From Squalus acanthias (lineage: Eukaryota): DNA of 64,000 bases. Both the position numbers and the translations under genes were made by a program. The notes beneath the pieces were generated by a model that saw only the letters and a program-made list of their open reading frames with translations, had not been told where the DNA came from and made no database searches. This document shows, piece after piece, positions 30,992 through 62,600 of the stretch (positions are counted from its first letter, which is position 1; each line of letters begins with the position of its first letter). The stretch lies in contig CM059431.1 of the NCBI GenBank assembly GCA_030390025.1, positions 153,824,001 through 153,888,000 of the forward strand. The letters run 5' to 3'.

Positions 30992-31159
30992 ACTATTTAT
31001 ATGAGTCACTCCATCGCTCTGCTGATCATTGAGAGGTGACTGATAGGAGGATAATTGGTTGGAGTCAAGTGTGTTCTTAATTTTGTGGGTAAGATATTGC
31101 TGGTCTTCCAAAATATATCCCTCAAGAGCATAAATTCCACTTATACGATTAAATACGAT

Positions 31160-32595
31160 TAAAATCACTAAGGAATTGGTATTCAGTAAAATAATGGGAC
31201 TCAAGGCGGATAAATCCCCTGAACCTGATGGCTTACATCCTAGGGTCTTGATGGAAGTGGCAGTAGGGATTGTGGATGCTTTGGTAATAATTTTACAAAA
31301 TTCCCTGGACTCAGCAAAGGTCCCGGCAGATTGGAAAACTGCTAATGTAACACCCTTATTTAAAAAGGGTAGTAGGCAGAAGGCTGGAAATTACAGGCCA
31401 GTTAGCCTAACATCTGTGGTGGGTAAAATTTTGGAGTCTATTATTAAGGAGACAGTAACGGAACATTTAGATAAACATAATTTAATAGGACAAAGTCAGC
31501 ATGGCTTTATGAAGGGGAAGTCATGCCTGACAAATTTGCTTGAGTGCTTTGAGGACATAAAGGACAGGGTGGATAAAGGGGAACCAGTGGACGTAGTGTA
31601 TTTAGACTTCCAGAAGGCATTCGACAAGGTGCCACATAAAAGATTATTGCTCAAGGTAAAACATCACTGGATTGGGGCTAATATTCTGGCATGGGTGGAG
31701 GATTGATTATCTAACAGGAAGCAGAGAGTTGGGATAAATGGTTCATTCTTGGACTGGGAACCAATAGCCAGTGGTATTCCGCAGGGGTCGGTGCTGGGTC
31801 CCCAACTCTTTACAATCTATATAACGATTTGGAGGAGGGGACCGAGTGTAACATATCAAAGTTTGCAGATGATACAAAGATGGGAGAGAAATTAGAAAGT
31901 GAGAAGGACATAAAAAACCTACAAGGGGATATAGACAGGCTGGGTGAGTGGGCGGGGATTTGGCAGATGCAATACAATATTGGAAAATGTGAGGTTATGC
32001 ACTTTGGCAGGAAAAATCAGAGAGTTATTATCTTAATGGCGAGAAACTGGAAAGTACTGCAGTACAAAGGGATCTGGGGGTCTTGGTGCAAGAAAATCAA
32101 AAAGCTAGTATGCAGGTGCAGCAGGTGATCAAGAAGGCCAACGGAATGTTGGCTTTTATTGCTAGGGGGATAGATTATAAAACCATCGAGGTTTTGCTGC
32201 AGTTATATAAGGTATTGGTGAGACCGCACCTGGAATACTGCGTACAGTTTTGGTGTCCATACTTAAGAAAATAAATACTTGCTCTCGAGGCAGTACAAAG
32301 AAGGTTCACTCGGTTAATCCCGGGGATGAGTGGTGGACAAATGAGGAGAGGTTGAGTAGATTTGAACTCTACTCATTGGAGTTCAGAGGAATGAGAGGCG
32401 ATCATATTGAAACATAAAAGATTGTGAAGGGGCTTGATTGGGTGGATGGGAACAGGATGTTCCCAAGGATGGGTGAAACTAGAACTAGGGGGCATAATCT
32501 TAGAATAAGGGGCGGCTCTTTCAAAACTGAGATGAGGAGAAACTTCTTCCACCAGAAGGTAGTAGGTCTGTGGAATTTGCTGCCCCAGGAAGAAG
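31160..32595 (+). mobile_element. CR1 LINE RT region, upstream part, interrupted by the LTR element
   Basis: NYRPVSLTS, VVYLDFQKAFDKVPH, FADDTK and LVRPHLEYC motifs. Confidence 0.9.
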
Positions 32596-34259
32596 TGTAA
32601 GGGATTCTGACCCTGCGTGTCTCGCAGCCTGTGAGATTCACGCGGCTCTGTGCAGCCTGTATGTCAGTGCGGGTCTAGGCCGTGTTGCCTGTTCTGGTCT
32701 CCAGCCAGTTCTGGGACACTAGACACACCTGTGAGTGGTTCGAATCACTCTCCCTTACGGTTCTAGACACTGGACTTTGATGCGAGAGCAGCAATAGAGA
32801 TGAAACTCATGTAGACTTGGTTTGAATGGTACGAAATGGAAAATCTTTATTGCATGATACTTAAGATTATGAAATACATGTCATAAGCACAGATTAATGA
32901 CAGTACAATCTTACAAACAGTTATATAGTCGATCTTAGGGAAACGAGGAACGAACGGCACAAAGTAAATAGGGGCACACATTACAAATATCCTTAATCCT
33001 TAAACCCTCCCCTATCAATATCTATCCTAAACTAGATTCGTAGGATCTCGAGACTCATGCTCACCACTCGTGATAACTCGGAGAAATTCCGAATAGCTGA
33101 TCGGATGTTTTTCACCGCAGCACCCACGTGTTGGTCAGGAGATCTCCTGGTCCCACTTGTTTCCTTGCTTCTGCTGCTCCGGCTAGCAGGCTGGAACGTC
33201 TGCTGTGATGAAGATCTGTATTGGTGGCTTTCACATTCCAGTTACTTTGGGCACAGTCCAGTTATCATCGATGCAATATGTTTCGTTATAAGTTCGAAGA
33301 AGTCTTCCTGGCGAGGAAAACTTGGCTAATCGACCTACAGGCGCGGTCGGGATTTACTGACCGTGGCGATGGATATGGTCTTCCTCTCTTCTCATCTCAT
33401 CTCATCTCATCTCTTCTCGGGCCTTTTGGTTCCGATACCGGTTACCAATATAGGTCTTCGTTACGCGACACGAGGTTGATCCGAACGGATCAGAAAGTTC
33501 AACAGTCTTTTCAGAAGAGGCAACAGGCAAGCAGAAGCCCAACTACGAGTACACAGGAGCAGCCACGAGGTTACGAATCGACCGGATAAGAGCACAGGAG
33601 CAGCCACGATGATAAGAGCAGCAAGAGAGAGAATGGACGGTTTGGAGCCTGCAATTATAGTGCAAAATCTTCCGTTTCCCGCCCAACTATAATGTCCATT
33701 CTTTTGTTTAAGGTCTGGCGCTCAAATGTCTTGTATGGGTGATCTCCGTTCTTAATGGGTTTCGGGGCTACTCGTAAATGTCTGAGTACCTGTTAATATT
33801 TCTCCCATTGTTAAATCGGTCGGTAATCTCCCTGGAGGGGTTTGGGGCTTCCAAGTGTCCTGTATAACTACCTGCTAACGGCTCTCTCATCGTAGAGTCG
33901 TTGGGATTTTACATATTAATGTCTTTTGGATGGGCCCTTGATTACTCGGTACAATGGCTTTCCTTTGTACCTGGGAGACCGATTTCAGTATCTATGTGTA
34001 TACTGCAAACCCATAATGTCTCGTGTATTATCTTCACTGTGCTGACTCTTAATCGATCTTGCACAAATGTTTATTGGAACGCCATCTTGTCTGCCTGTTG
34101 AAAAGTCCAGAATGTTCTGTCACGAGGTGCGGCGGCCATTTTACAGGCTGCTTGTGTCCACTTTAAACCTGCCAGCATTCTACTGAAATAAAAGCTGTTT
34201 GAACGAAACTCTGTGTTTTCTCCTTATTAATAAAATCGCGATATATTGCGAATTCTACA
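32596..34259 (-). repeat. 3' LTR (1664 bp)
   Basis: Direct repeat of 40299-41963; preceded on the minus strand by the PPT; AATAAA at ~32846-32851. Confidence 0.95.
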
Positions 34260-34260
34260 G

Positions 34261-34271
34261 TCCCTCCTGTT
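34261..34271 (-). promoter_or_regulatory. Polypurine tract
   Basis: aacaggaggga lies 1 nt before the 3' LTR TGTA on the minus strand. Confidence 0.7.
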
Positions 34272-34709
34272 GATGCGAATAACTCTGCTTATCGTATCAA
34301 AAATCATAGTGGTGAGCAATATTATCTCGATTTCTCTCCGAATCCAGCAAATTAATCCCATAATTTTAATTTAGCTAGGGTCTCTGTGTCGTCCTCATTT
34401 CCCAAGAAAATTACATTTTATATCACCGTAGGCATTATTTGCCCTTAAACTTACACCACTTGTTTTCCTTCCCGGCGTAACCAGGCCGATGCTTCTCGTA
34501 TCACCTGTATATTCATCTTTTATTCAGGGAAAGGAAAAACAGAACCCAAAACCAAACAATCATTTTTAACTGTAACACCATCACCAAAATAATCAACACC
34601 AACTCTTAAAACATGTCGAGTTTCCAACGTATTTACAATCTCTGAAAATCATGATTGAGTACAAACTTCCGCGGCGCACGTGGCGAGCGGGAGTGACGCC
34701 ATTTTCCGA

Positions 34710-37061
34710 TCACACGGTGCTTTCATCGTGCACGCGCACGTAACGTTCTCGCCACTCTCCCGTGTTTTCATGCTTGGTGAGGCGCTTGTCTCTTTTACAA
34801 TGTACGACCAATAGGTACACTACAATAAACACTTGGCATACGACTAAAATGTGGGAGGCTATTCTGATCCATGAAGGTACTTCAATATTAGTGAACAGAT
34901 TCCACCACGGTGGAACTACTATATCCAGAATGTCTGTTCCTATTTCGACAGTTTTCTGCTCTAATGTGTAAAAGTGTTTCTGTGACACCGCGACGGCTTT
35001 TAAAAGCTTGGTGAGGTGTTCAGGGAGAGGGGGAATGAGGTATCCAAAATGCGCGACGAATCGCTGCAAGTCGGTGAAATTCTCTTTTACTGTGAGATGA
35101 ACAGTGGATGGTTCAGGGATTGGGATAATTCGCTGTTGTGCTACTTGAACTTCCGCCCTGGGTTTAAAACAGAAACTGCTGTCACTCACCGGACACCGGC
35201 TACGGTTTCCATGCTGGTAGTGTTGCGCTGCAGTGGTAACACAATATGTTCCACCCCCGATGTATGCTACCTGCGGAGGCACATGATCTTGTGCCATTGC
35301 CTCCATGGTGCAATTCATGGACTTGGCGCCAGTCGTTCTGAACCCACACTGTGGTGTTAAAAAGGCATTCAAGTGCTGGGGGCACAGTATTATGTGTGCT
35401 CCCCTGCCACGACAACCAGAGAGATCTGTACCTGTCATCGTTTGCTCCCAGCGGATGACGTAGGGTGGAACCGCTGCATAGCGAATGTGGGCTACCCCCT
35501 GAATGACACCAATGTTCTCTACCCGATACACCGGGGCGGGCTTTGCTGTGTCGCCCAAAACCGGCATACGTAATACTATTCCCATAATAGTATGGTTTGA
35601 TCGTCCGCAGTCCACGGGGACTGGGTAAGCTTCTGAAGCTAGCCTGAGCTGGCATGGACTTAATGCGTTCTGAAAAGGGTGGAGCGCCCGCAGGTGTTTG
35701 TTACTTATCCAGGACGGAACCAAACCTTGTTTTAAATCCTCCAAATTACTGCGGCCCTCGCCCAGTAACCACGCCCCGTAAAGCACGCACACCTCGTTCT
35801 GCGCAGCTTGATCGGATGCATTCCGATCTTCCCTAATCAGGGCATTTACCGTCTTTGCATGTTTCTCCAACTCTGCTATAATTTCCTTTAAATGGAGGGT
35901 CATGGCTTGGTCCTCGTGTAGACCCGACCCTACCACTTTATTCTCATCTGTTAGAATGTCCTTTAATTGTGTCTTTAAACCATTAATCTGGGTCTGCAGC
36001 TCCACACTGTCTAGAGCGTAGACCACAGATGTACCCGTGTTAAAAGCGGTGAACGCATCGTTCACCAAACCCCTTCTTTGCCTCCCTGCTTGATTCAAAA
36101 CTTCCTGTGGTGCGGTGTACAAACTTGTTTTATCAATTTCCGCGAAATCGAATTCGTAAAATTGTCTGAACATCTTGGTCAACAGGACCTGGTACAACTG
36201 TTCCGTCTTTTTGGGGCACCACTCTGGTAACCGCACCTCAGTGAGATTTAAAATCACCGAGGCCACCGCGTAATGTACCCCCTGAAATAGTATCTGGTCT
36301 GTGGGGACCAGTACCAAACCATTCCCGGGTCCCTTACTAGTTTTAGGGCACCCTTCTTCCTCAGCTAGAACCACCGGAATCGTGGGCGGGGCTTTGCGTG
36401 GGCGCGTAATGAGCTCAGTGGCATTTACTGGGATCGGGGAGAATGGGGCTCCGCACCCCCTGGTGCTCGCATCCCACCTCATCCCCTGTCCGTTATGCTG
36501 CCATTGATTAATAAAAAATATGGAGATGCCTTTGGGGCAAACGTACTTTGACCCCCACATACATACATAAATTCCCTCATCCGGTTCCCACCATTTGTCC
36601 CAACAGACTTTCACTTGTCCGTCTGTCCCCGTAATTGTCCGATGGGTATTATTACCCAGTCGTTCCCACTCGACCGAAGAGTTCCTCATAGTTTTGCTCA
36701 GCTTTCGCAGCCACCACCATCGGCTCAATGGGACCTTCCCACTACAAGTCAAACAAATCCGTTTGCCGACGGTGACGCTGATCCTGGGTGCGATGATCCT
36801 TACTTTGGGGCACAGTAAAGAAGTCTCTTTGTAGGCAAACCCCGATGTGCTGGAATACTCCGTTGAGTTCGTTCCCAGCCATCCTGGCCACCTTCCCTTG
36901 TGGAAATAGGTGCTGGTCTCCTCTGCCTCCCGTCTTCCGGTCCCATCCACCGCGATGGGGGCCGTGTCCCCGGAACATCCAAACACCACGACATCCTTGG
37001 TGCGGCCTCGATAGGCCAATCCACATCCGATTGCCGCGAGCAATACTAGAATTCGTTCCAT
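34710..37061 (-). CDS. env: Envelope / class I fusion glycoprotein, ~783 aa from the signal-peptide ATG (ORF open from 37244)
   Basis: Strong-context aggATGG with signal peptide MERILVLLAAIGCGLA; Ig-like segment; furin site RQRR (36072-36083); fusion peptide and heptad repeat; Cys-rich region; TM helix IASHILVVCQVFIVVYLLVV; about ten N-glycosylation sequons. Confidence 0.9.
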   Translation of the reverse strand: MERILVLLAAIGCGLAYRGRTKDVVVFGCSGDTAPIAVDGTGRREAEETSTYFHKGRWPGWLGTNSTEYSSTSGFAYKETSLLCPKVRIIAPRISVTVGKRICLTCSGKVPLSRWWWLRKLSKTMRNSSVEWERLGNNTHRTITGTDGQVKVCWDKWWEPDEGIYVCMWGSKYVCPKGISIFFINQWQHNGQGMRWDASTRGCGAPFSPIPVNATELITRPRKAPPTIPVVLAEEEGCPKTSKGPGNGLVLVPTDQILFQGVHYAVASVILNLTEVRLPEWCPKKTEQLYQVLLTKMFRQFYEFDFAEIDKTSLYTAPQEVLNQAGRQRRGLVNDAFTAFNTGTSVVYALDSVELQTQINGLKTQLKDILTDENKVVGSGLHEDQAMTLHLKEIIAELEKHAKTVNALIREDRNASDQAAQNEVCVLYGAWLLGEGRSNLEDLKQGLVPSWISNKHLRALHPFQNALSPCQLRLASEAYPVPVDCGRSNHTIMGIVLRMPVLGDTAKPAPVYRVENIGVIQGVAHIRYAAVPPYVIRWEQTMTGTDLSGCRGRGAHIILCPQHLNAFLTPQCGFRTTGAKSMNCTMEAMAQDHVPPQVAYIGGGTYCVTTAAQHYQHGNRSRCPVSDSSFCFKPRAEVQVAQQRIIPIPEPSTVHLTVKENFTDLQRFVAHFGYLIPPLPEHLTKLLKAVAVSQKHFYTLEQKTVEIGTDILDIVVPPWWNLFTNIEVPSWIRIASHILVVCQVFIVVYLLVVHCKRDKRLTKHENTGEWRERYVRVHDESTV

Positions 37062-37244
37062 CCTTCCTTGGTTCCTGTGATCAGATAGAATGAGGTAGCC
37101 AGCCTCGCAAGAGTCTCTGGCTTTTGTGAAGGGTGAGCGGGTCCCCTGACCTCGCCTCACGTAAACTTCAACGTTCGCTGAATAAACTTCAACTAAACCT
37201 ATCTTTAAAGCTCCCATCATTTTATCGTTTTCTGTTAAAAACAC

Positions 37245-37345
37245 TACAATCTTAACCTTATTAAAACTATAAACTTAACCTTGAACTATTAACTTAAAAC
37301 TTAACCTTGAACTATAAACTTAAAACTTAGAACTATAACTTTACA
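37245..37345 (-). promoter_or_regulatory. T-rich short-repeat tract upstream of env (candidate splice-acceptor region)
   Basis: Repeated aacttaaccttgaactat units; minus-strand tttttaacag just downstream (~37232). Confidence 0.35.
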
Positions 37346-37372
37346 GTGCCGCCCGTTCTCAGGGCGGCCCCT

Positions 37373-38482
37373 TTAAATTCTGAGAAGGCTGCTGCGAGCT
37401 CTTCCCGACGGTGGGAGGGTACTGACCCTTCCCTCTGATCTGCCGCAGCCTGTTACTGCTGCGATGTGGCCGGTCTGTATCTGGGTTATCTTAACCTTAA
37501 ACTTACGCCTTGGGGCAGTCTGGGGACATGACCACATCCTCCTGGGCTGGGGTTCTCTCCTTGACCTATGGGGAGTTGCTATGGGCGGGGTTTCCGTGAC
37601 GGACGGACCGGGTTCCGAGACTTCCATCGGGATGACCTGGGGTTCCATCACAGTCGCTGGCTCCGCCTCCGCTGACTCCGCCTCCCTAACCTCGGGGCTG
37701 GCAGTTCGTGGCTCCGCCCTGCTCGGCCCAGCAGGCAGCCCTTCACTCGTGATCTCTGCCTCCCCCGAGGACGGGACGTTCAAAGCGGGCGGCCACATCT
37801 CTGGGAGCCACACCGGTACTCTCTGTGCTCCCATAGCGGCTGGCCCTGCCTCCCCTAGCTCCTCCCTCCTGTCTTCGGGACCTGCAGCTTGTGTGTCCAC
37901 CCTGTGTGGATCTCTACCTACAGCCCCCATTCCCTCCAGACCGTTCCTCAGGAACCACCCGTCGTCATCACTATTCCCATCTGCACTATCCTCATCTGAC
38001 CCGGGTACCCTGAATTCTTCCTCATCTAACCCCCAATTCCAGAAAAACGCTGCATGATCGTCCGGGATGTCCCTTCCCCTGATGCAAGCTGCTATGCCTG
38101 CCTGTGTGCCTTGTGGTCCTACCTGGGGCTGTGCTTCCCCACTGGCGGGGTTTACCCCTGTGGTTTTCCCTTGCGCACCTGGCTGGTACAGTTTGCACTG
38201 GTTTGCATCCTCATACTCCCGGCTTTTGGCTACCCTGTAGGCTGCTTTTATCTCACTAAGCTGCGCTTCTAGCCTGAGCACGTCTAACTTTCCCATTGAT
38301 CGGGCGTTCTCCTCCCGCAGGGCCTGCTCTCTAAGCTGCCCTTCCAGCCCATCTATTTTCCCTATTAAGCGGGCGTTCTCCTCCCGCAAGGCCTGCTCTT
38401 TTAACCTGGCCTCCTCACCGCAGACCCCCTCCTGTGCGTGTCTTTTAAAAGGACACAGGTAGGCAGGCTGCGTGGGCTCTAG
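37373..38482 (-). CDS. ORF2 of unknown function in the pol position; in frame with gag after TGA-CTAG
   Basis: Open from the codon after the gag stop (LEPTQPAYLCPF...) to 37373; coiled coil followed by acidic/Pro-rich sequence; no PR, RT, RH or IN motifs. Confidence 0.7.
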   Translation of the reverse strand, partial: LEPTQPAYLCPFKRHAQEGVCGEEARLKEQALREENARLIGKIDGLEGQLREQALREENARSMGKLDVLRLEAQLSEIKAAYRVAKSREYEDANQCKLYQPGAQGKTTGVNPASGEAQPQVGPQGTQAGIAACIRGRDIPDDHAAFFWNWGLDEEEFRVPGSDEDSADGNSDDDGWFLRNGLEGMGAVGRDPHRVDTQAAGPEDRREELGEAGPAAMGAQRVPVWLPEMWPPALNVPSSGEAEITSEGLPAGPSRAEPRTASPEVREAESAEAEPATVMEPQVIPMEVSEPGPSVTETPPIATPHRSRREPQPRRMWSCPQTAPRRKFKVKITQIQTGHIAAVTGCGRSEGRVSTLPPSGRARSSLLRI

Positions 38483-40294
38483 TCATTGGGTACTATTAGA
38501 CGGTCCTGCGGCACCTACGGGGCCGGTTGCGACCGCCACCTGTCCACGTGCATTCAAGACCAGCTTGCGCATGGCTCCTAACACCACTTCGAGTTCGTCA
38601 GGAGGGGTGGGTGCCTTAGCTTCCTTAGCCGGGACAGGCGCCTGGGCTCGGACCGCGGGATTTTTATCCTTGGAATCCTTCCAAGGGTTCCTGCAATGCT
38701 TGCGCCAGTGCCCTGTCTTCCCACACCCGTAACAAGCATTACCTGCCTGTGGGGCGCGATTACCCTCCTGATGCCACTCTCTTTGATACGGGGCTGCGGG
38801 TCGTACCTCATGTACTCTTCCCTTAAGGGGACGTGTTGCCATACCCCTTATATTGCGATAACCTAACGTGAGTCGATTCAAGACCGACTCTTCCGTAATG
38901 TTGGGGTCATTGGGATCAAACCATGCTTTTGCCTGCTCTCTGACGGCTGGTAAACTGTTGGCTATTATGCACCTAAGCCAATGAGTTAAAGCGGTGCCTT
39001 CCACATCTTCGCTCTCGGGCGCACCTAGGCAGCTGCGCTCATATACTGGCCACAGCCTTTCGGCAAAAACCTTCGGGGGTTCTCCCTCCATCTGCACTGT
39101 CTGTCCCACTCTAGCAAACGGACCTTCGTCGTTCGCCCCCAACACTTCCAGGACCTCATTCTTTAATTCCTCATAACTCTTGGTTCCCCTCTTGCTCTCG
39201 CCTTAGAGACACTGAAGGACCGAGCTGTCTAATGAGAACAGCAGCATTTTTGCTGTCTCCCCATCATCGCAGCCGTTAATGGCTGCGTCTTGCTCAACTT
39301 CTCTGAAATGTACGGAAGGGTCGTCTGCCTCGGTCAGCTTCCGTACGTGATTTATCATAGCTCTCAGCTGATGTGAACTGTGAGGCAACACCAGCTGTCC
39401 GAGGAGATCCCCCGGTTCTTCCCCACCGTTTCTGCTTGGGCCCCTTTTAATACCCGTTACTGGATATTACGATCCCTTTCCTACTTCTTTTTCAATGGGC
39501 TCTTTTGTTTCTTCCATTGCTTCCTCCCTAACCCAGGTTTCTGAATAGCTGGGTGGCGCGGAGGGCGCAGTGGCTACTACTTCTTCTGCTTTACTTGGTG
39601 GGGATTTTCTAAATCTCTCATTTACTAGCGGCTGGTGCGCCGACGGATTGATAAGGCACACCATGCCGTTCGCATTGTTCACGGCCTTTTTGAGGTGCTC
39701 TATCTCCCTTTGGCAGGCGCTATGATCGGCTCCCTGAAACTTATCCTCAAGGGCCAACTTATATGCCGCCCTAACCCCCGTCAAGCTCTCTTCTTGAGTT
39801 CTTATCTGGGCAGCTTGGCGGTTACATCTTTCCTTTAACCTGCTCTCATTCAATTTTGCCTCAGTGACCTGGCACTCGAGATAATCTATCCTTGTTTTAA
39901 GGTGACTGGAGACTTCCTGGCTTTCTTGGTGTAACTCATTTAAATTCTTAATGAGCACCTCCCCTCCAGAAACCTTCTCATCCATTTCTCCCTCTAAATG
40001 ACTGATTCGAGCTACTAGCGCTGTAATGGTCTGGTTTGAAATCTGAACCTGCCTTTTGTAACACATAAGCCAGACTGCTTTCTCAAGTGTCTTTCTATGT
40101 TCTTTACTATCTGTCCACCTTTCAGCTGCCTCTAGTGGGCTTTTATCCGCTAACAATTCACTTATCCATTTCTTAGTTAGATTAACCTTTCCAAACACAT
40201 AATCCGCTATCTTTTCCTGCATAACATTTCGTACAGTCATTCCAAAATCTAACACACTACCCTCTCGCTGCCAGTGTCCTGCCGCGGTCGCCAT
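38483..40294 (-). pseudogene. gag: gag (~603 codons) with two in-frame TAA stops (39467-39469, 39203-39205)
   Basis: Three listed ORFs share one frame; coiled coil, PSAPPSY, MHR-like QMEGEPPKVFAERL, CCHC knuckle CYGCGKTGHWRKHC (38693-38734). Confidence 0.9.
40276..40293 (-). promoter_or_regulatory. Primer-binding site (tRNA-Ser-like, tentative)
   Basis: TGGCGACCGCGGCAGGAC begins 5 nt after the 5' LTR; resembles TGGCGTAGTCGGCAGGAT (recalled vertebrate tRNA-Ser complement). Confidence 0.65.
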
Positions 40295-40298
40295 TTTC

Positions 40299-41963
40299 TG
40301 TAAGGGATTCTGACCCTGCGTGTCTCGCAGCCTGTGAGATTCACGCGGCTCTGTGCAGCCTGTATGTCAGTGCGGGTCTAGGCCTTGTTGCCTGTTCTGG
40401 TCTCCAGCCAGTTCTGGGAACACTAGACACACCTGTGAGTGGTTCGAATCACTCTCCCTTACGGTTCTAGACACTGGACTTAGATGCGAGAGCAGCAATA
40501 GAGATGAAACTCATGTAGACTTGGTTTGAATGGTACGAAATGGAAAATCTTTATTGCATGATACTTACCATTATGAAATACATGTCATAAGCACAGATTA
40601 ATGACAGTACAATCTTACAAACAGTTATATAGTCGATCTTAGGGAAACGAGGAACGAACGGCACAAAGTAAATAGGGGCACACATTACAAATATCCTTAA
40701 TCCTTAAACCCTCCCCTATCAATATCTATCCTAAACTAGATTCGTAGGATCTCGAGACTCATGCTCACCACTCGTGATAACTCGGAGAAATTCCGAATAG
40801 CTGATCGGATGTTTTTCACCGCAGCACCCACGTGTTGGTCAGGAGATCTCCTGGTCCCACTTGTTTACTTGCTTCTGCTGCTCCGGCTAGCAGGCTGGAA
40901 CGTCTGCTGTGATGAAGATCTGTATTGGTGGCTTTCACATTCCAGTTACTTTGGGCACAGTCCAGTTATCATCGATGCAATATGTTTCGTTATAAGTTCG
41001 AAGAAGTCTTCCTGGCGAGGAAAACTTGGCTAATCGACCTACAGGCGCGGTCGGGATTTACTGACCGTGGCGATGGATATGGTCTTCCTCTCTTCTCATC
41101 TCATCTCATCTCATCTCTTCTCGGGCCTTTTGGTTCCGATACCGGTTACCAATATAGGTCTTCGTTACGCGACACGAGGTAGATCCGAACGGATCAGAAA
41201 GTTCAACAGTCTTTTCAGAAGAGGCAACAGGCAAGCAGAAGCCCAACTACGAGTACACAGGAGCAGCCACGAGGTTACGAATCGACCGGATAAGAGCACA
41301 GGAGCAGCCACGATGATAAGAGCAGCAAGAGAGAGAATGGACGGTTTGGAGCCTGCAATTATAGTGCAAAATCTTCCGTTTCCCGCCCAACTATAATGTC
41401 CATTCTTTTGTTTAAGGTCTGGCGCTCAAATGTCTTGTATGGGTGATCTCCGTTCTTAATGGGTTTCGGGGCTACTCGTAAATGTCTGAGTACCTTTTAA
41501 TATTTCTCCCATTGTTAAATCGGTCGGTAATCTCCCTGGAGGGGTTTGGGGCTTCCAAGTGTCCTGTATAACTACCTGCTAACGGCTCTCTCATCGTAGA
41601 GTCGTTGGGATTTTACATATTAATGTCTTTTGGATGGGCCCTTGATTACTCGGTACAATGGCTTTCCTTTGTACCTGGGAGACCGATTTCAGTATCTATG
41701 TGTATACTGCAAACCCATAATGTCTCGTGTATTATCTTCACTGTGCTGACTCTTAATCGATCTTGCACAAATGTTTATTGGAACGCCATCTTGTCTGCCT
41801 GTTGAAAAGTCTAGAATGTTCTGTCACGAGGTGCGGCGGCCATTTTACAGGCTGCTTGTGTCCACTTTAAACCTGCCAGCATTCTACTGAAATAAAAGCT
41901 GTTTGAACGAAACTCTGTGTTTTCTCCTTCTTAATAAAATCGCGATATATTGCGAATTCTACA
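40299..41963 (-). repeat. 5' LTR (1665 bp)
   Basis: Direct repeat of 32596-34259 with about ten differences by eye; followed on the minus strand by PBS and gag. Confidence 0.95.
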
Positions 41964-42262
41964 GAAGCTACATCATTAATTAATTTAAAACAGAAATAGA
42001 TAGTTTCCTAGAGGTAAAGGGAATTAGGGCTTACGGTGAGCGGGCAGGAAATTGCACATGAGGCTGAGTTCGGATCGGTCAGGGCCCTGTGGGTGGCGGA
42101 GCGGGCCCAGGGGCTGAGTGGCCGGGTCCTGCACCTACTTCTTGTGTTCTTTAGATTTCAGGTTAGGATCAGATCAGCCATGATCTTATTGAATTGCGGA
42201 GCAGGCTCGAGGGGCCGATTGGCCTACTCCTGCTCCTATTTCTTATGTTCTTATGTTCTTAT
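41964..42262 (+). mobile_element. CR1 LINE 3' end, continuing 31160-32595
   Basis: Resumes gaagctacatcattaat...; ends in the gcaggctcgaggggccg stem-loop and (ttcttatg)n tail. Confidence 0.85.
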
Positions 42263-59639: not shown

Positions 59640-62600
59640 CCGCGGGCTTTCTCCAGAGACCAGTGTCGGGAGCGGAGAGAGCAGCAGCACAGTGATTAGT
59701 TAAACACACTTTTGTGGGCATTTTACAGAGGCCAGTGTCCGGAAAGGGCCCTTGAGTATATCATTTAATTGAAGTGAAATTGGTGGGATTCATTTAATTT
59801 AATTTTAATTAATTAATTAAAGGGTTAGTCATGGCAAGAGAGCTCCGCCCCGTGATATGCTCCTCCTGCTTTTTGTGGGAAATCAGGGACGCTTCCGGTG
59901 TCCCTGACGACCATGTGTGTGGGAAGTGTATCCAGCTGCAGCTACTGATAGACCGCATTGCGGCGCTGCAGCTGCGGATGGATGTATATTGGAGCATTCG
60001 CGACGCTGAGAACGTCGTGGATAGCCCTTTTAGCGAGTTGGTCACACCGCAGGTAAATGGTGTACAGGCAGGAAGTGAATGGGTTACCACCAGGCAGAGT
60101 AAGAGGTGCAGGCAGTTAGTGCAAGGGTCCCCTGTGGACATCCCCCTCTCAAACAGATATACCACTTTGGATACTGTTGGGGGGGATGACTTATCAGGGG
60201 AAGGCAGCAGCAGCCAACTTCCTGGCACCATGTGTGGCTCTGCTACACAGGCTGGGAGGAAAAAGAGTGGAAGAGCTATAGTGATAGGGGATTCAATTGT
60301 AAGGGGAATAGATAGGCGTTTCTACGGCCGCAAACGAGATTCCAAAATGGTGTGTTGCCTCGCTGGTGCAAGGGTCAAGGTCGTCTCGGAGCGGCTACAG
60401 AACATTTTGGAGAGGGAGGGTGAACAGCCAGTTGTCGTGGTGCACATAGGCAGCAACGATATAGGTGAAAAACGGGATAAGGTCCAAAAAGCAGAATATA
60501 GGGAGTTAGGAGGTAAATTAAAAAATAGGACCTCAAAGGTAGTAATCTCATGATTGCTACCAGTGCCACGTTCTAGTCAGAGTAGAAATAGGAGGATATT
60601 TCAAATGAATACGTGGCTAGAGGAATGGTGCAAGTCGGTGAGATTCAAATTCCTTGGACATTGGAACCGGTTCAAGTGGTGGTGGGACCATTACAAATGG
60701 AACGGTCTGCCCATGGGCAGGGCAGCGACCGATGTCCCCGGGGGGAGTTTGCTAGTGCTCTTGCTGGAGGGTTTAAACTATAGAGGTTTGGGAAACTGGG
60801 CACTGAGAGAGAGGAAGGGGAAACAAGCATAAAAGCAAAAGACAGGAAGGAGAAAAACAAAAGTAGAAGGCAAAGAACTCAACGGTTCAAATCAAAAATG
60901 GTCACAGTAAATAATAATTGATATTGGTCTGAATGCTTTGTGTCTAAATGCAAGGGGCATTCGGAACAAGGTGGATGAATTAGCTGCAAGAATATAAGTT
61001 AATGAATACGATTTGATTGGGATTACAGAAACATGGCTTCAGGGTGACCAAGGCTGGGAACTCAACATCCAGGTGTATTCAATATTTAGGACAGATAGGC
61101 AAAAAGTAAAGTGAGTTGTGGTAGCTTTGCTGGTTAAAGAGGGGATTAACACAATTGAAAGGAAGGATATTAGCTCTAATGATTCGGAATCTGTATGGGT
61201 AGAACTGAGGAATAACAAGGGGCAGAACACGTTACTGGGAGTGGTATATAGAGCTCCAAACAGTAATACGGAGGTTGGGGACGGCATTTAAAGGGAAATT
61301 AGAGAAGCATGCAGTAAGGGCACAGCAGTCATCATGGGTAACTTTAATTTACATGTAGATTGGGCTAACCAAATTAGTAAAAATATTGTGGAGGAGGAAT
61401 TCCTAGAATGTTTACGGGATGTTTTTTTGGAACAATATATCGAGGGCCCAACCAGAGATCAGGCCATATTAAACTGGGTATTATGTAACGAGAAAGGACT
61501 AATTAGCAATCTTGTTGAACGTTGCCTCTTGGGTCAGAGTGATCATAATATGATAGAATTCTTCATTAGGATGGAGAGTGAAGTAGTTGAATCAGAGACT
61601 TGGGCCCTGAATTTAAATAAAGGGCACTACAATGCTATGAGGCGCGAATTGGGTCGGATTGATTGGGGAATTTCACTCAAAGGGTTGACGGTGGATAGGC
61701 AATGGCAAACATTCAAAGACTGCATGAATGAACGACAGAATTTGTTCATCCCAGTGTTGCATAAGATAAAACAAAAAGGCTGACTCATCCGTGGCTAACA
61801 AGGGAAATTAGGGATAGCATAAGATCCAAGGAGAGGGCATTTAAATTGGCCAGAAAAAGCGGAAAATCTGAAGATTGTGTGCAGTTCAGGATTCAACAAA
61901 GGAGGACAAAGGGATTAATTAAGAAAGGGAAAATAGAATATGAAAGTAAGCTTGCAGGGACCATAACAACTGACTGTAAGAGCTTTTATAGATATGTGAA
62001 GAGAAAAAGATTAGTGAAATCAAGTTAGTTCCCTTGCAGTCAGAAGCGGGGTAAGTTATAATGGGGAACAAAGAAATGGCAGACCAATTAAATGCATATT
62101 TTGTTTCTGTCTTCACAAAGGAGGACACAAATAACCTCCCAGCGATGTTGGAGAACATAGGTTCTGATGAAAGGGTGTAAGTGAAAGAAATCAGCATTTG
62201 CAGGGCAATGGTGTTAGGGAAATTGATGGGATTGAAGGTCGATAAATCCCCAGGGCCTGATAATCTACATCCTAGGGTACGTAAGGAAGTGGCCGTGAAA
62301 TAGTAGATGCATTGCTGATCATCTTCCAACATTCGATGGAATCTGGAACTGTACCCATGGATTGGAGGGTAGCTAATGTTACCACACTATTCAAAAAGGG
62401 TGGCAGAGAGAAAGCGGGGAATTACAGACTGGTAAGCCTGACATCGGCAGTTGGGAAAATGCTAGAGTCCGTTATAAAGGATGTAATAGCTGAGCACTTG
62501 AAAAACAGTGACAGGATCGGACAGAGTCAACATTGATTTACAAATGGTAAATCGTGCTTTACTAATCTACTGGAAATTTTTGAGGATGTAACTGGGAAAA

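Follow-up and report, generated by a model that had tools for sequence, protein, structure and literature searches.

A pol-less, multi-copy endogenous retrovirus of Squalus acanthias that retains gag, env and a candidate readthrough frame beside a pol-bearing partner

A 64,000-nucleotide stretch of the Squalus acanthias genome (contig CM059431.1 of GCA_030390025.1, positions 153,824,001 to 153,888,000; the window below) contains an endogenous retrovirus (ERV) without pol, which was analysed together with its relatives in the same genome. The window copy lies on the minus strand at 32596..41963 in the order long terminal repeat (LTR), primer-binding site (PBS), gag, a frame called ORF2, env, polypurine tract (PPT) and LTR, with an interior of about 6.04 kb. 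It represents a lineage, not a single deletion, and has a pol-bearing partner in the same genome, referred to here as the helper, with which it shares LTR, PBS, gag and env. The explanation that we favour, with moderate confidence, is a helper-dependent satellite form of a snakehead retrovirus (SnRV)-like ERV, whose own gag, env and ORF2 would be kept by selection.

The LTR pair (32596-34259 against 40299-41963) ends in TG...CA and differs by 9 mismatches and 1 gap column across 1,665 positions. This alignment, the GAAG flanks, the PBS and the purine tract bear out the build and the 4-bp target-site duplication (TSD) read in the first-pass annotation. In six-frame translation, the interior has no YxDD or HHCC motif and none of protease or integrase, and no Pol family of Pfam was found in the seven of seven window open reading frames (ORFs) scanned, none of which was named above the Pfam cut-off. 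Moreover, tblastn with the helper Pol matched only through residues 1-16 and the C-terminal tail of the query, so the absence of protease, reverse transcriptase (RT), RNase H and integrase claimed before holds. The env frame is open as annotated, with 854 codons from stop to stop and a product of 783 aa when read from its ATG (37061). In addition, ORF2 continues in the frame of gag beyond the gag stop. The window Gag has an N-terminal coiled-coil-like part and one CCHC knuckle, and many other copies have gag as an open frame of 627 codons; its comparison with the PDB gave just weak zinc-knuckle matches (E 0.07 or worse) and no capsid evidence.

A non-autonomous lineage had been proposed, together with a genome search for copy number and a partner. 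With the interior as query, this search returned 16 matches that share the build over the full length and another 10 that start only in the middle of ORF2; upstream of the latter, the same LTR and gag were followed by a full pol. The helper Pol contains the Pfam domains RVP (weak), RVT_1, RT_RNaseH, RNase_H, H2C2 and rve, and the tether is present. Subsequent counts refer to 40 pol-less copies (every second of the first 79 exact junction matches) and 10 evenly stepped helpers, 5 of which have a single Pol frame of 1,490+ codons; helper Pol occurs in two lengths, about 1,494 and 1,507 codons. Searching the junction 25-mer exactly gave 928 pol-less and 593 pol-bearing places, and allowing up to 3 mismatches gave 1,320 and 2,212, with 0 for the reversed controls in both cases; tandem copies slightly inflate both counts. 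The excess of pol-less copies over helpers in the exact search was discarded as an artefact of exact matching, since the order flips at up to 3 mismatches. Copies are spread over many contigs, and the nearest relatives of the window copy show 95-98% identity in LTR, gag and env. The element thus combines loss of the Pol enzymes, retained cis signals, many independent insertions and an autonomous partner in the genome, as expected of a trans-complemented non-autonomous ERV; the interior is free of Pol enzyme domains, the build is multi-copy and not a one-off, and the proposed lineage stands. Tandem proviruses at one-LTR spacing were also seen for both forms (pol-less at ~7.72 kb, G000:C1 143657921-143673386; pol-bearing at ~11.05 kb, C3 117795024-117817146), which may be real arrays or assembly effects.

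ORF2 had been taken as an unknown gene, a view that was not upheld, since pol remnants account for about 290 of its 369 codons. It consists of about 11 pol codons, 246 nt of foreign DNA (38450-38205) replacing 3,621 nt of pol in frame, and the Pol tail. The insert looks like a coiled coil by eye, with a weak match to Rab11-FIP3 (E 0.006), and contains a 69-nt unit present in one to three copies among elements, with the frame preserved. No donor was found in six helper stretches or the rest of the window; there was no protein match, Atlas gave only an unnamed 0.86 match, and the genome protein search returned the family itself. The pol-less copies have one common pol/insert junction, and the insert is confined to this form: 13 of 13 places checked outside the exact junction list had the same junction, with 1,545 insert matches in the genome against 1,320 junction matches. 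ORF2 reaches the common end in 35/40 pol-less copies, across 16 lengths. The gag-stop TGA is retained in 38/40 (TGA-CTAG in 36, TGA-CTGG in 2), and TGA-CTAG is present in 10/10 helpers. UGA-CUAG is a readthrough-prone context. Since helpers need readthrough of this TGA to make Pol, the pol-less form should make Gag-ORF2. At L115, L121, L126, L129, L135, L136, L138, L141, L147 and L152, the tail begins differently just behind the insert, with LKQDRNLQPP... in place of NQCKLYQPG..., and stays in frame. Of loci L142 and L144, one has lost the gag stop, leaving gag and ORF2 as one frame, and the other has the front half of gag fused to ORF2 by a deletion.

The family was placed with trees of RT, alone or with the tether, against foamy, gamma, two lokiretrovirus (L110 and L112, labelled by eye) and gypsy references, a set without ERV-L or epsilonretroviruses and from which 8 loci with no RT match and near-duplicate references had been left out. 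The helper RT falls inside Retroviridae, apart from lokiretroviruses, with support of 99/98 (RT) and 97/94 (RT and tether). The family joins SnRV at 85/81 in the best RT and tether tree, while the tree of RT alone does not settle the SnRV grouping. With RT and tether, grouping with foamy viruses was not rejected (approximately unbiased test, p-AU 0.071), and grouping with the two lokiretrovirus RTs was rejected (p-AU 0.0035). Membership of the foamy viruses was discarded: the family lies outside the foamy clade (100/100 without the family), has a CCHC knuckle, carries gag and pol in frame and uses an Arg primer. Foamy viruses have a Gag without CCHC, a Pol separate from Gag and a Lys primer. 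The closest Pol relatives are a Logan protein (89%) and frog and coelacanth proteins (40-45%). The sole match in the viral collection (L075) was taken as SnRV because its RT matches the one that Wang and Han list for SnRV in their supplement, and by eye the RT motifs of the family agree with that entry and not with the lokiretrovirus entries. The helper also has the tether and a second RNase H, a feature of lokiretroviruses that is common to all retroviruses. Lokiretroviruses further form the sister clade of Retroviridae in RT, have an integrase related to CGIN1 and carry an Env related to Mononegavirales F, with an RXKR-type site, fusion peptide, coiled coil and transmembrane segment. In the available parts of the sources, lokiretroviruses were found in 0/6 chondrichthyan genomes (Wang and Han, PMC7947760), and SnRV-like ERVs are known in chondrichthyans (PMC4422223). 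On these sequence grounds, the family is probably one of the snakehead-retrovirus-like elements and is not assigned to the lokiretroviruses.

As far as the available texts go, the closest known system is the SnRV-like ERVs (clade Huo, Xu et al. 2018, PMC6001957; CmiERV lineage I, Han 2015, PMC4422223). In SnRV as in this family, gag and pol occupy the same frame and are separated by one stop, Env is homologous and Gag is rich in coiled coil with one CCHC, whereas Pol identity is 32%, the stop here is TGA-CTAG and not TAG, and the LTRs here are 1.66 kb. The SnRV primer is tRNA-Arg, and the Arg primer here matches the host tRNA-Arg(TCG), although the isoacceptor sequence differs. The PBS pattern occurs at 424 places in the genome, and in all 4 loci that were scanned (4/4) ARAGORN identified tRNA-Arg(tcg). 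No pol-less satellite of SnRV-like viruses was found in the literature searched.

Env has an N-terminal hydrophobic leader (by eye), an RQRR cleavage site at 327-330, a transmembrane segment at 728-758 and 10 N-x-S/T sites. A model from the single sequence was useless (predicted local distance difference test, pLDDT, 34) and was discarded; the alignment-based model has a mean pLDDT of 62. Residues ~245-652 of the latter matched human parainfluenza virus 3 F (Foldseek E 3e-10), and a viral structure library also matched paramyxo-/pneumovirus F. The model aligned with Newcastle disease virus F at Z 9.9 (root-mean-square deviation 21.6, 330 aligned) and with foamy Env at Z 8.3 (5.4, 276 aligned). 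By sequence, Env alone had no match in the PDB and PF00523 was not matched, whereas the Env profile matched foamy Env as its only PDB match (E 0.004) and aligned with SnRV Env by hhalign (89%, E 2e-6). The fusion body is therefore predicted to fold like paramyxovirus F and foamy Env (PDB 1ztm, 3maw, 8rm0/8rm1; PMC11468914, in its available part), at 10-16% identity and, unlike in these, preceded by an N-terminal head of ~230 residues. The fusion-protein body proposed in the first-pass annotation is thus supported by fold, and the lokiretrovirus link drawn from it fell with the RT and tether test. Since F-type Env is common to foamy viruses and SnRV, it is not diagnostic of lokiretroviruses. 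The SnRV-like branch with its predicted Env indicates that this fold is not special to lokiretroviruses or foamy viruses, and no paper stating such an Env in that branch was found in a literature search mostly without subscription papers.

The Env head carries the immunoglobulin (Ig) motifs C106...D-x-G-x-Y-x-C167, including the C-strand Trp. Its Atlas look-alikes belong to the Ig clan in 10/10 cases, at a recognition of 2242 (below 2300); the Env homolog P0034 gave a weak V-set match (E 0.045), and P0012 is named 'Ig-like domain-containing'. The pLDDT of the model is mostly below 60 in this region. The head is probably Ig-like, with weak statistics, and a receptor-binding role would be a guess. 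Among the close relatives of this Env are proteins of a skate and a sawshark. Frogs and coelacanth also have related Env and Pol (P0018, P0027, P0034, P0054). At its end, the frog Pol model P0054 has a stretch that resembles the V-set head of P0034, so that Env with an Ig-like head seems to accompany this Pol clade. By eye, SnRV Env (L075:6131-9532) also has an Ig-like stretch, V-x-L-x-C...W...Y-x-C, before its F-type body. Database gene models P0002, P0003, P0010 and P0038 join related Env pieces to host genes of Niban-like, zinc finger, cadherin and F-box type, probably as annotation chimeras and possibly as exonised insertions.

Frames were largely open in the pol-less sample: gag in 30/40, env in 23/40 (completely covered in 34/40), and all three in 17/32 copies with a full interior. 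An own 4-bp TSD flanks 25/27 copies with resolved LTR ends, the other 13/40 being left out of this count. In these, LTR-pair divergence is 0-0.53% (median 0.12%, zero in 9/27), and among the 40 copies LTR length ranges from ~1,380 to 1,730 nt, with the pair near-identical within a copy. Since gag differs by up to 19% from that of the window copy despite the low LTR divergence, the diversity would have arisen during replication, with several sub-lineages lately active. The window copy is at the old end of the range (0.54%), about 1.2 million years at a mammalian rate or 12 million at the ten-fold slower shark rate assumed in the available text of PMC4422223.

The ratio of nonsynonymous to synonymous polymorphism (pN/pS) among pol-less copies is 0.10 for env (0.08-0.13; Env head 0.15) and 0.30 for gag (0.25-0.36), values that indicate purifying selection, and 0.53 for the insert (0.30-0.92). 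The corresponding substitution ratio dN/dS, taken from alignment rows with at most 25% gaps per region (gag 48/51, insert 41/41, tail 51/51, env 45/51), is equal within and between pol-less and helper groups (env 0.09, gag 0.26). In the Gag and Env phylogenies proposed earlier, helpers interleave with pol-less copies, and helpers as one clade were rejected (env p-AU 4e-5, gag p-AU 9e-38), the pattern that we infer to result from template switching among co-packaged RNAs.

All 30 bins of the element are covered by contigs from four runs, which carry four organism codes, and the gag-side junction is bridged in 3/4 runs among the pieces listed. One contig of a run guessed to be RNA (X1; the RNA nature of X3 is likewise a guess) skips 3,694 nt from 40769 in the LTR to 37074, with GT..AG ends, a depth of 12.9 and 21 letters on the short side. 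The donor motif is kept in 37/40 and the acceptor motif in 38/40 pol-less copies, the latter also in 10/10 pol-bearing ones, and the TATA-like site at 40631 is located downstream of the candidate donor. This joint is a hint of a spliced env mRNA. The coordinates of the window copy are collected in Table 1.

Table 1. Features of the pol-less element in the window
Feature	Position	Strand	Basis
TSD GAAG (left)	32592..32595	.	direct sequence comparison
3' LTR, 1,664 nt	32596..34259	-	LTR pair alignment
Short polypurine tract AGGAGGGA, 8 nt, 1 nt away from 3' LTR	34261..34268	-	
env, 783 aa, open	34710..37061	-	ORF, fold comparison, motif evidence
Candidate env splice acceptor CAG/G, 13 nt 5' of env ATG	37074..37076	-	contig joint with GT..AG ends, motif conservation
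ORF2 3' part: last integrase C-terminal domain residues, ~270-aa low-complexity Pol tail, stop	37373..38204	-	
ORF2 insert, 246 nt (82 codons), coiled-coil-like, internal 69-nt repeat	38205..38450	-	
ORF2 5' part: first ~11 pol codons	38451..38482	-	
gag stop TGA then CTAG, sharing the frame of ORF2 (of pol in helpers); candidate readthrough site	38483..38485	-	
gag, start uncertain (in-frame ATGs 40294, 40240, 40222)	38483..40240	-	
PBS, 18 nt, 5 nt away from 5' LTR, complementary to host tRNA-Arg(TCG)	40276..40293	-	
5' LTR, 1,665 nt; candidate splice donor G/GTGAGC 40769/40768; TATA-like 40631; AATAAA 40555, 41779	40299..41963	-	
TSD GAAG (right)	41964..41967	.	direct sequence comparison

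The insertion point is the 3' part of a copy of a long interspersed nuclear element (LINE), presumably of the CR1 type, with LINE RT-like frames at 31134-32274. Elsewhere in the window, a 246-codon frame with a GDSIVRG motif was observed at 59813-60553 (minus strand), which we take to resemble the esterase ORF1 of CR1/L2 LINEs.

In the favoured explanation, a single template switch would have swapped the 3.6 kb pol (protease, RT, tether, RNase H, integrase) for the 246-nt in-frame coiled-coil cassette. Retaining LTRs, Arg PBS and PPT, the satellite RNA would be packaged, reverse-transcribed and integrated by helper Pol, and it would produce Gag, a spliced env mRNA and, through TGA readthrough, an enzyme-less Gag-ORF2. 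Co-packaging with helper RNA would lead to frequent recombination and move the cassette among gag and env backgrounds. Selection would preserve gag, env and the ORF2 frame, probably through supply of coat and envelope to mixed particles together with a gain in cis from translation. The window copy would be an older member whose gag broke later. Borrowing of Pol in trans and particle formation are suggested by the genome patterns.

The chief competing explanation is a passive hitch-hiker of the defective-interfering RNA kind, mobilised in trans, with proteins that are irrelevant, gag and env refreshed by recombination, and ORF2 open through youth or RNA stability; we regard it as a real but lesser possibility. 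The interleaving of helper and pol-less copies and the equal dN/dS within and between groups speak for it, and bovine D-type elements without any ORF spread and recombine with competent ones (PMC10924933, available part). Several other results also count against selection on the element's own frames. Purifying selection on gag and env can have been imported from helpers by recombination. The Pol tail is near neutral (pN/pS 0.88, 0.72-1.12), and 11/30 of its shared indels are multiples of 3 when counted singly, a count that depends on the alignment, with the net frame kept. By clade, the insert has a pN/pS of 0.33 (0.17-0.59) in one and 0.96 (0.32-5.39), that is unconstrained, in the other. The window gag is interrupted by two in-frame stops (39467-39469 and 39203-39205), contrary to the working gag first annotated. 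Pairwise pN/pS comparisons are non-independent, the trees include 10 of about 2,200 helpers, all from one exact-match subfamily, so that clades of pol-less copies only may hide helpers, and readthrough, particles and trans-complementation enter as inference. However, the insert, which cannot be refreshed from helpers, has an upper pN/pS bound below one, its 69-nt unit varies in frame, the ORF2 frame is held over its 16 lengths, and the sample is not dominated by any sub-lineage with broken frames or without env.

Two further explanations fare much worse. Multiplication at the DNA level after one post-insertion rearrangement, by segmental or tandem duplication, gene conversion or assembly repeats with no RNA step, would account for the tandem copies at one-LTR spacing that inflate the counts (three at ~7.72 kb; L127, L133, L150), but it is largely refuted by the distinct flanks with their own TSD, by LTR pairs near-identical yet different between copies and by the spread over many contigs, and we consider it very improbable. 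A non-autonomous lokiretrovirus, like zebrafish BHIKHARI with an env added, is if anything harder still to credit. The F-type Env with an R-x-x-R site, tether and RNase H, the coiled-coil Gag, the automatic 'NYNRIN-like' labels of the nearest Pol matches and RT and tether blast scores of 257 and 266 bits to lokiretroviruses against 264 to SnRV would fit it, whereas RT placement, the rejected grouping, the RT motifs and the chondrichthyan survey oppose it.

Other successful defective elements were compared through the available parts of their descriptions. Mouse intracisternal A-particle (IAP) I-delta-1 is likewise non-autonomous and very successful; one internal deletion gave an in-frame gag-pol fusion acting in cis (PMC6466679), but it lacks env and needs Gag in trans, while here the gag and env frames are kept and the foreign insert lies behind a readthrough stop. 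Bovine ERVK[2-1-LTR] D-type elements, recKoRV and ETn/MusD resemble the family in a swapped central segment with kept flanks, trans-complementation and pervasive recombination (PMC10924933); the bovine D-types have no intact ORF, whereas here the swap preserves the frame, and the frames of gag, ORF2 and env are kept in most of the sampled copies. In zebrafish, BHIKHARI Bik-1/Bik-2 likewise lack pol, encode a coiled-coil Gag and have been active recently (10.1101/2024.03.25.586437), but they are loki-related, have gag only and lack a partner in the reference genome, in contrast to the about 2,200 pol-bearing copies here. In these available texts, no high-copy form in which gag, env and a readthrough frame all persist is described for IAP I-delta-1, bovine D-types, recKoRV, ETn or BHIKHARI, and such a pol-less form is not described in the available parts of PMC8672886 or PMC10435555. 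Chicken EAV-HP is reported to have a pol deletion, of which no description was found in the available texts.

Non-autonomous ERVs are already known; what is unusual here is that gag, env and a readthrough frame have been retained. Defective ERVs that succeed usually shed env, and often all frames, whereas in this family, alongside ~2,200 pol-bearing relatives, most of the ~1,300 young enzyme-less copies still have gag, env and the readthrough frame. A bolder version of the favoured explanation, which we hold to be rather doubtful, is that of a true satellite retrovirus, in which two genomes would form a stable and partly cooperative system. The pol-less partner would supply its own Gag and F-type Env, and its readthrough Gag-coiled-coil product, made in place of Gag-Pol, would help it to capture helper Pol or outcompete helper RNA; it would have persisted over many replication rounds and be present in several related fish species. 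The family provides a natural data set on whether a defective partner pays, in coat and envelope, or cheats, and on the role that a cis-acting readthrough product may play.

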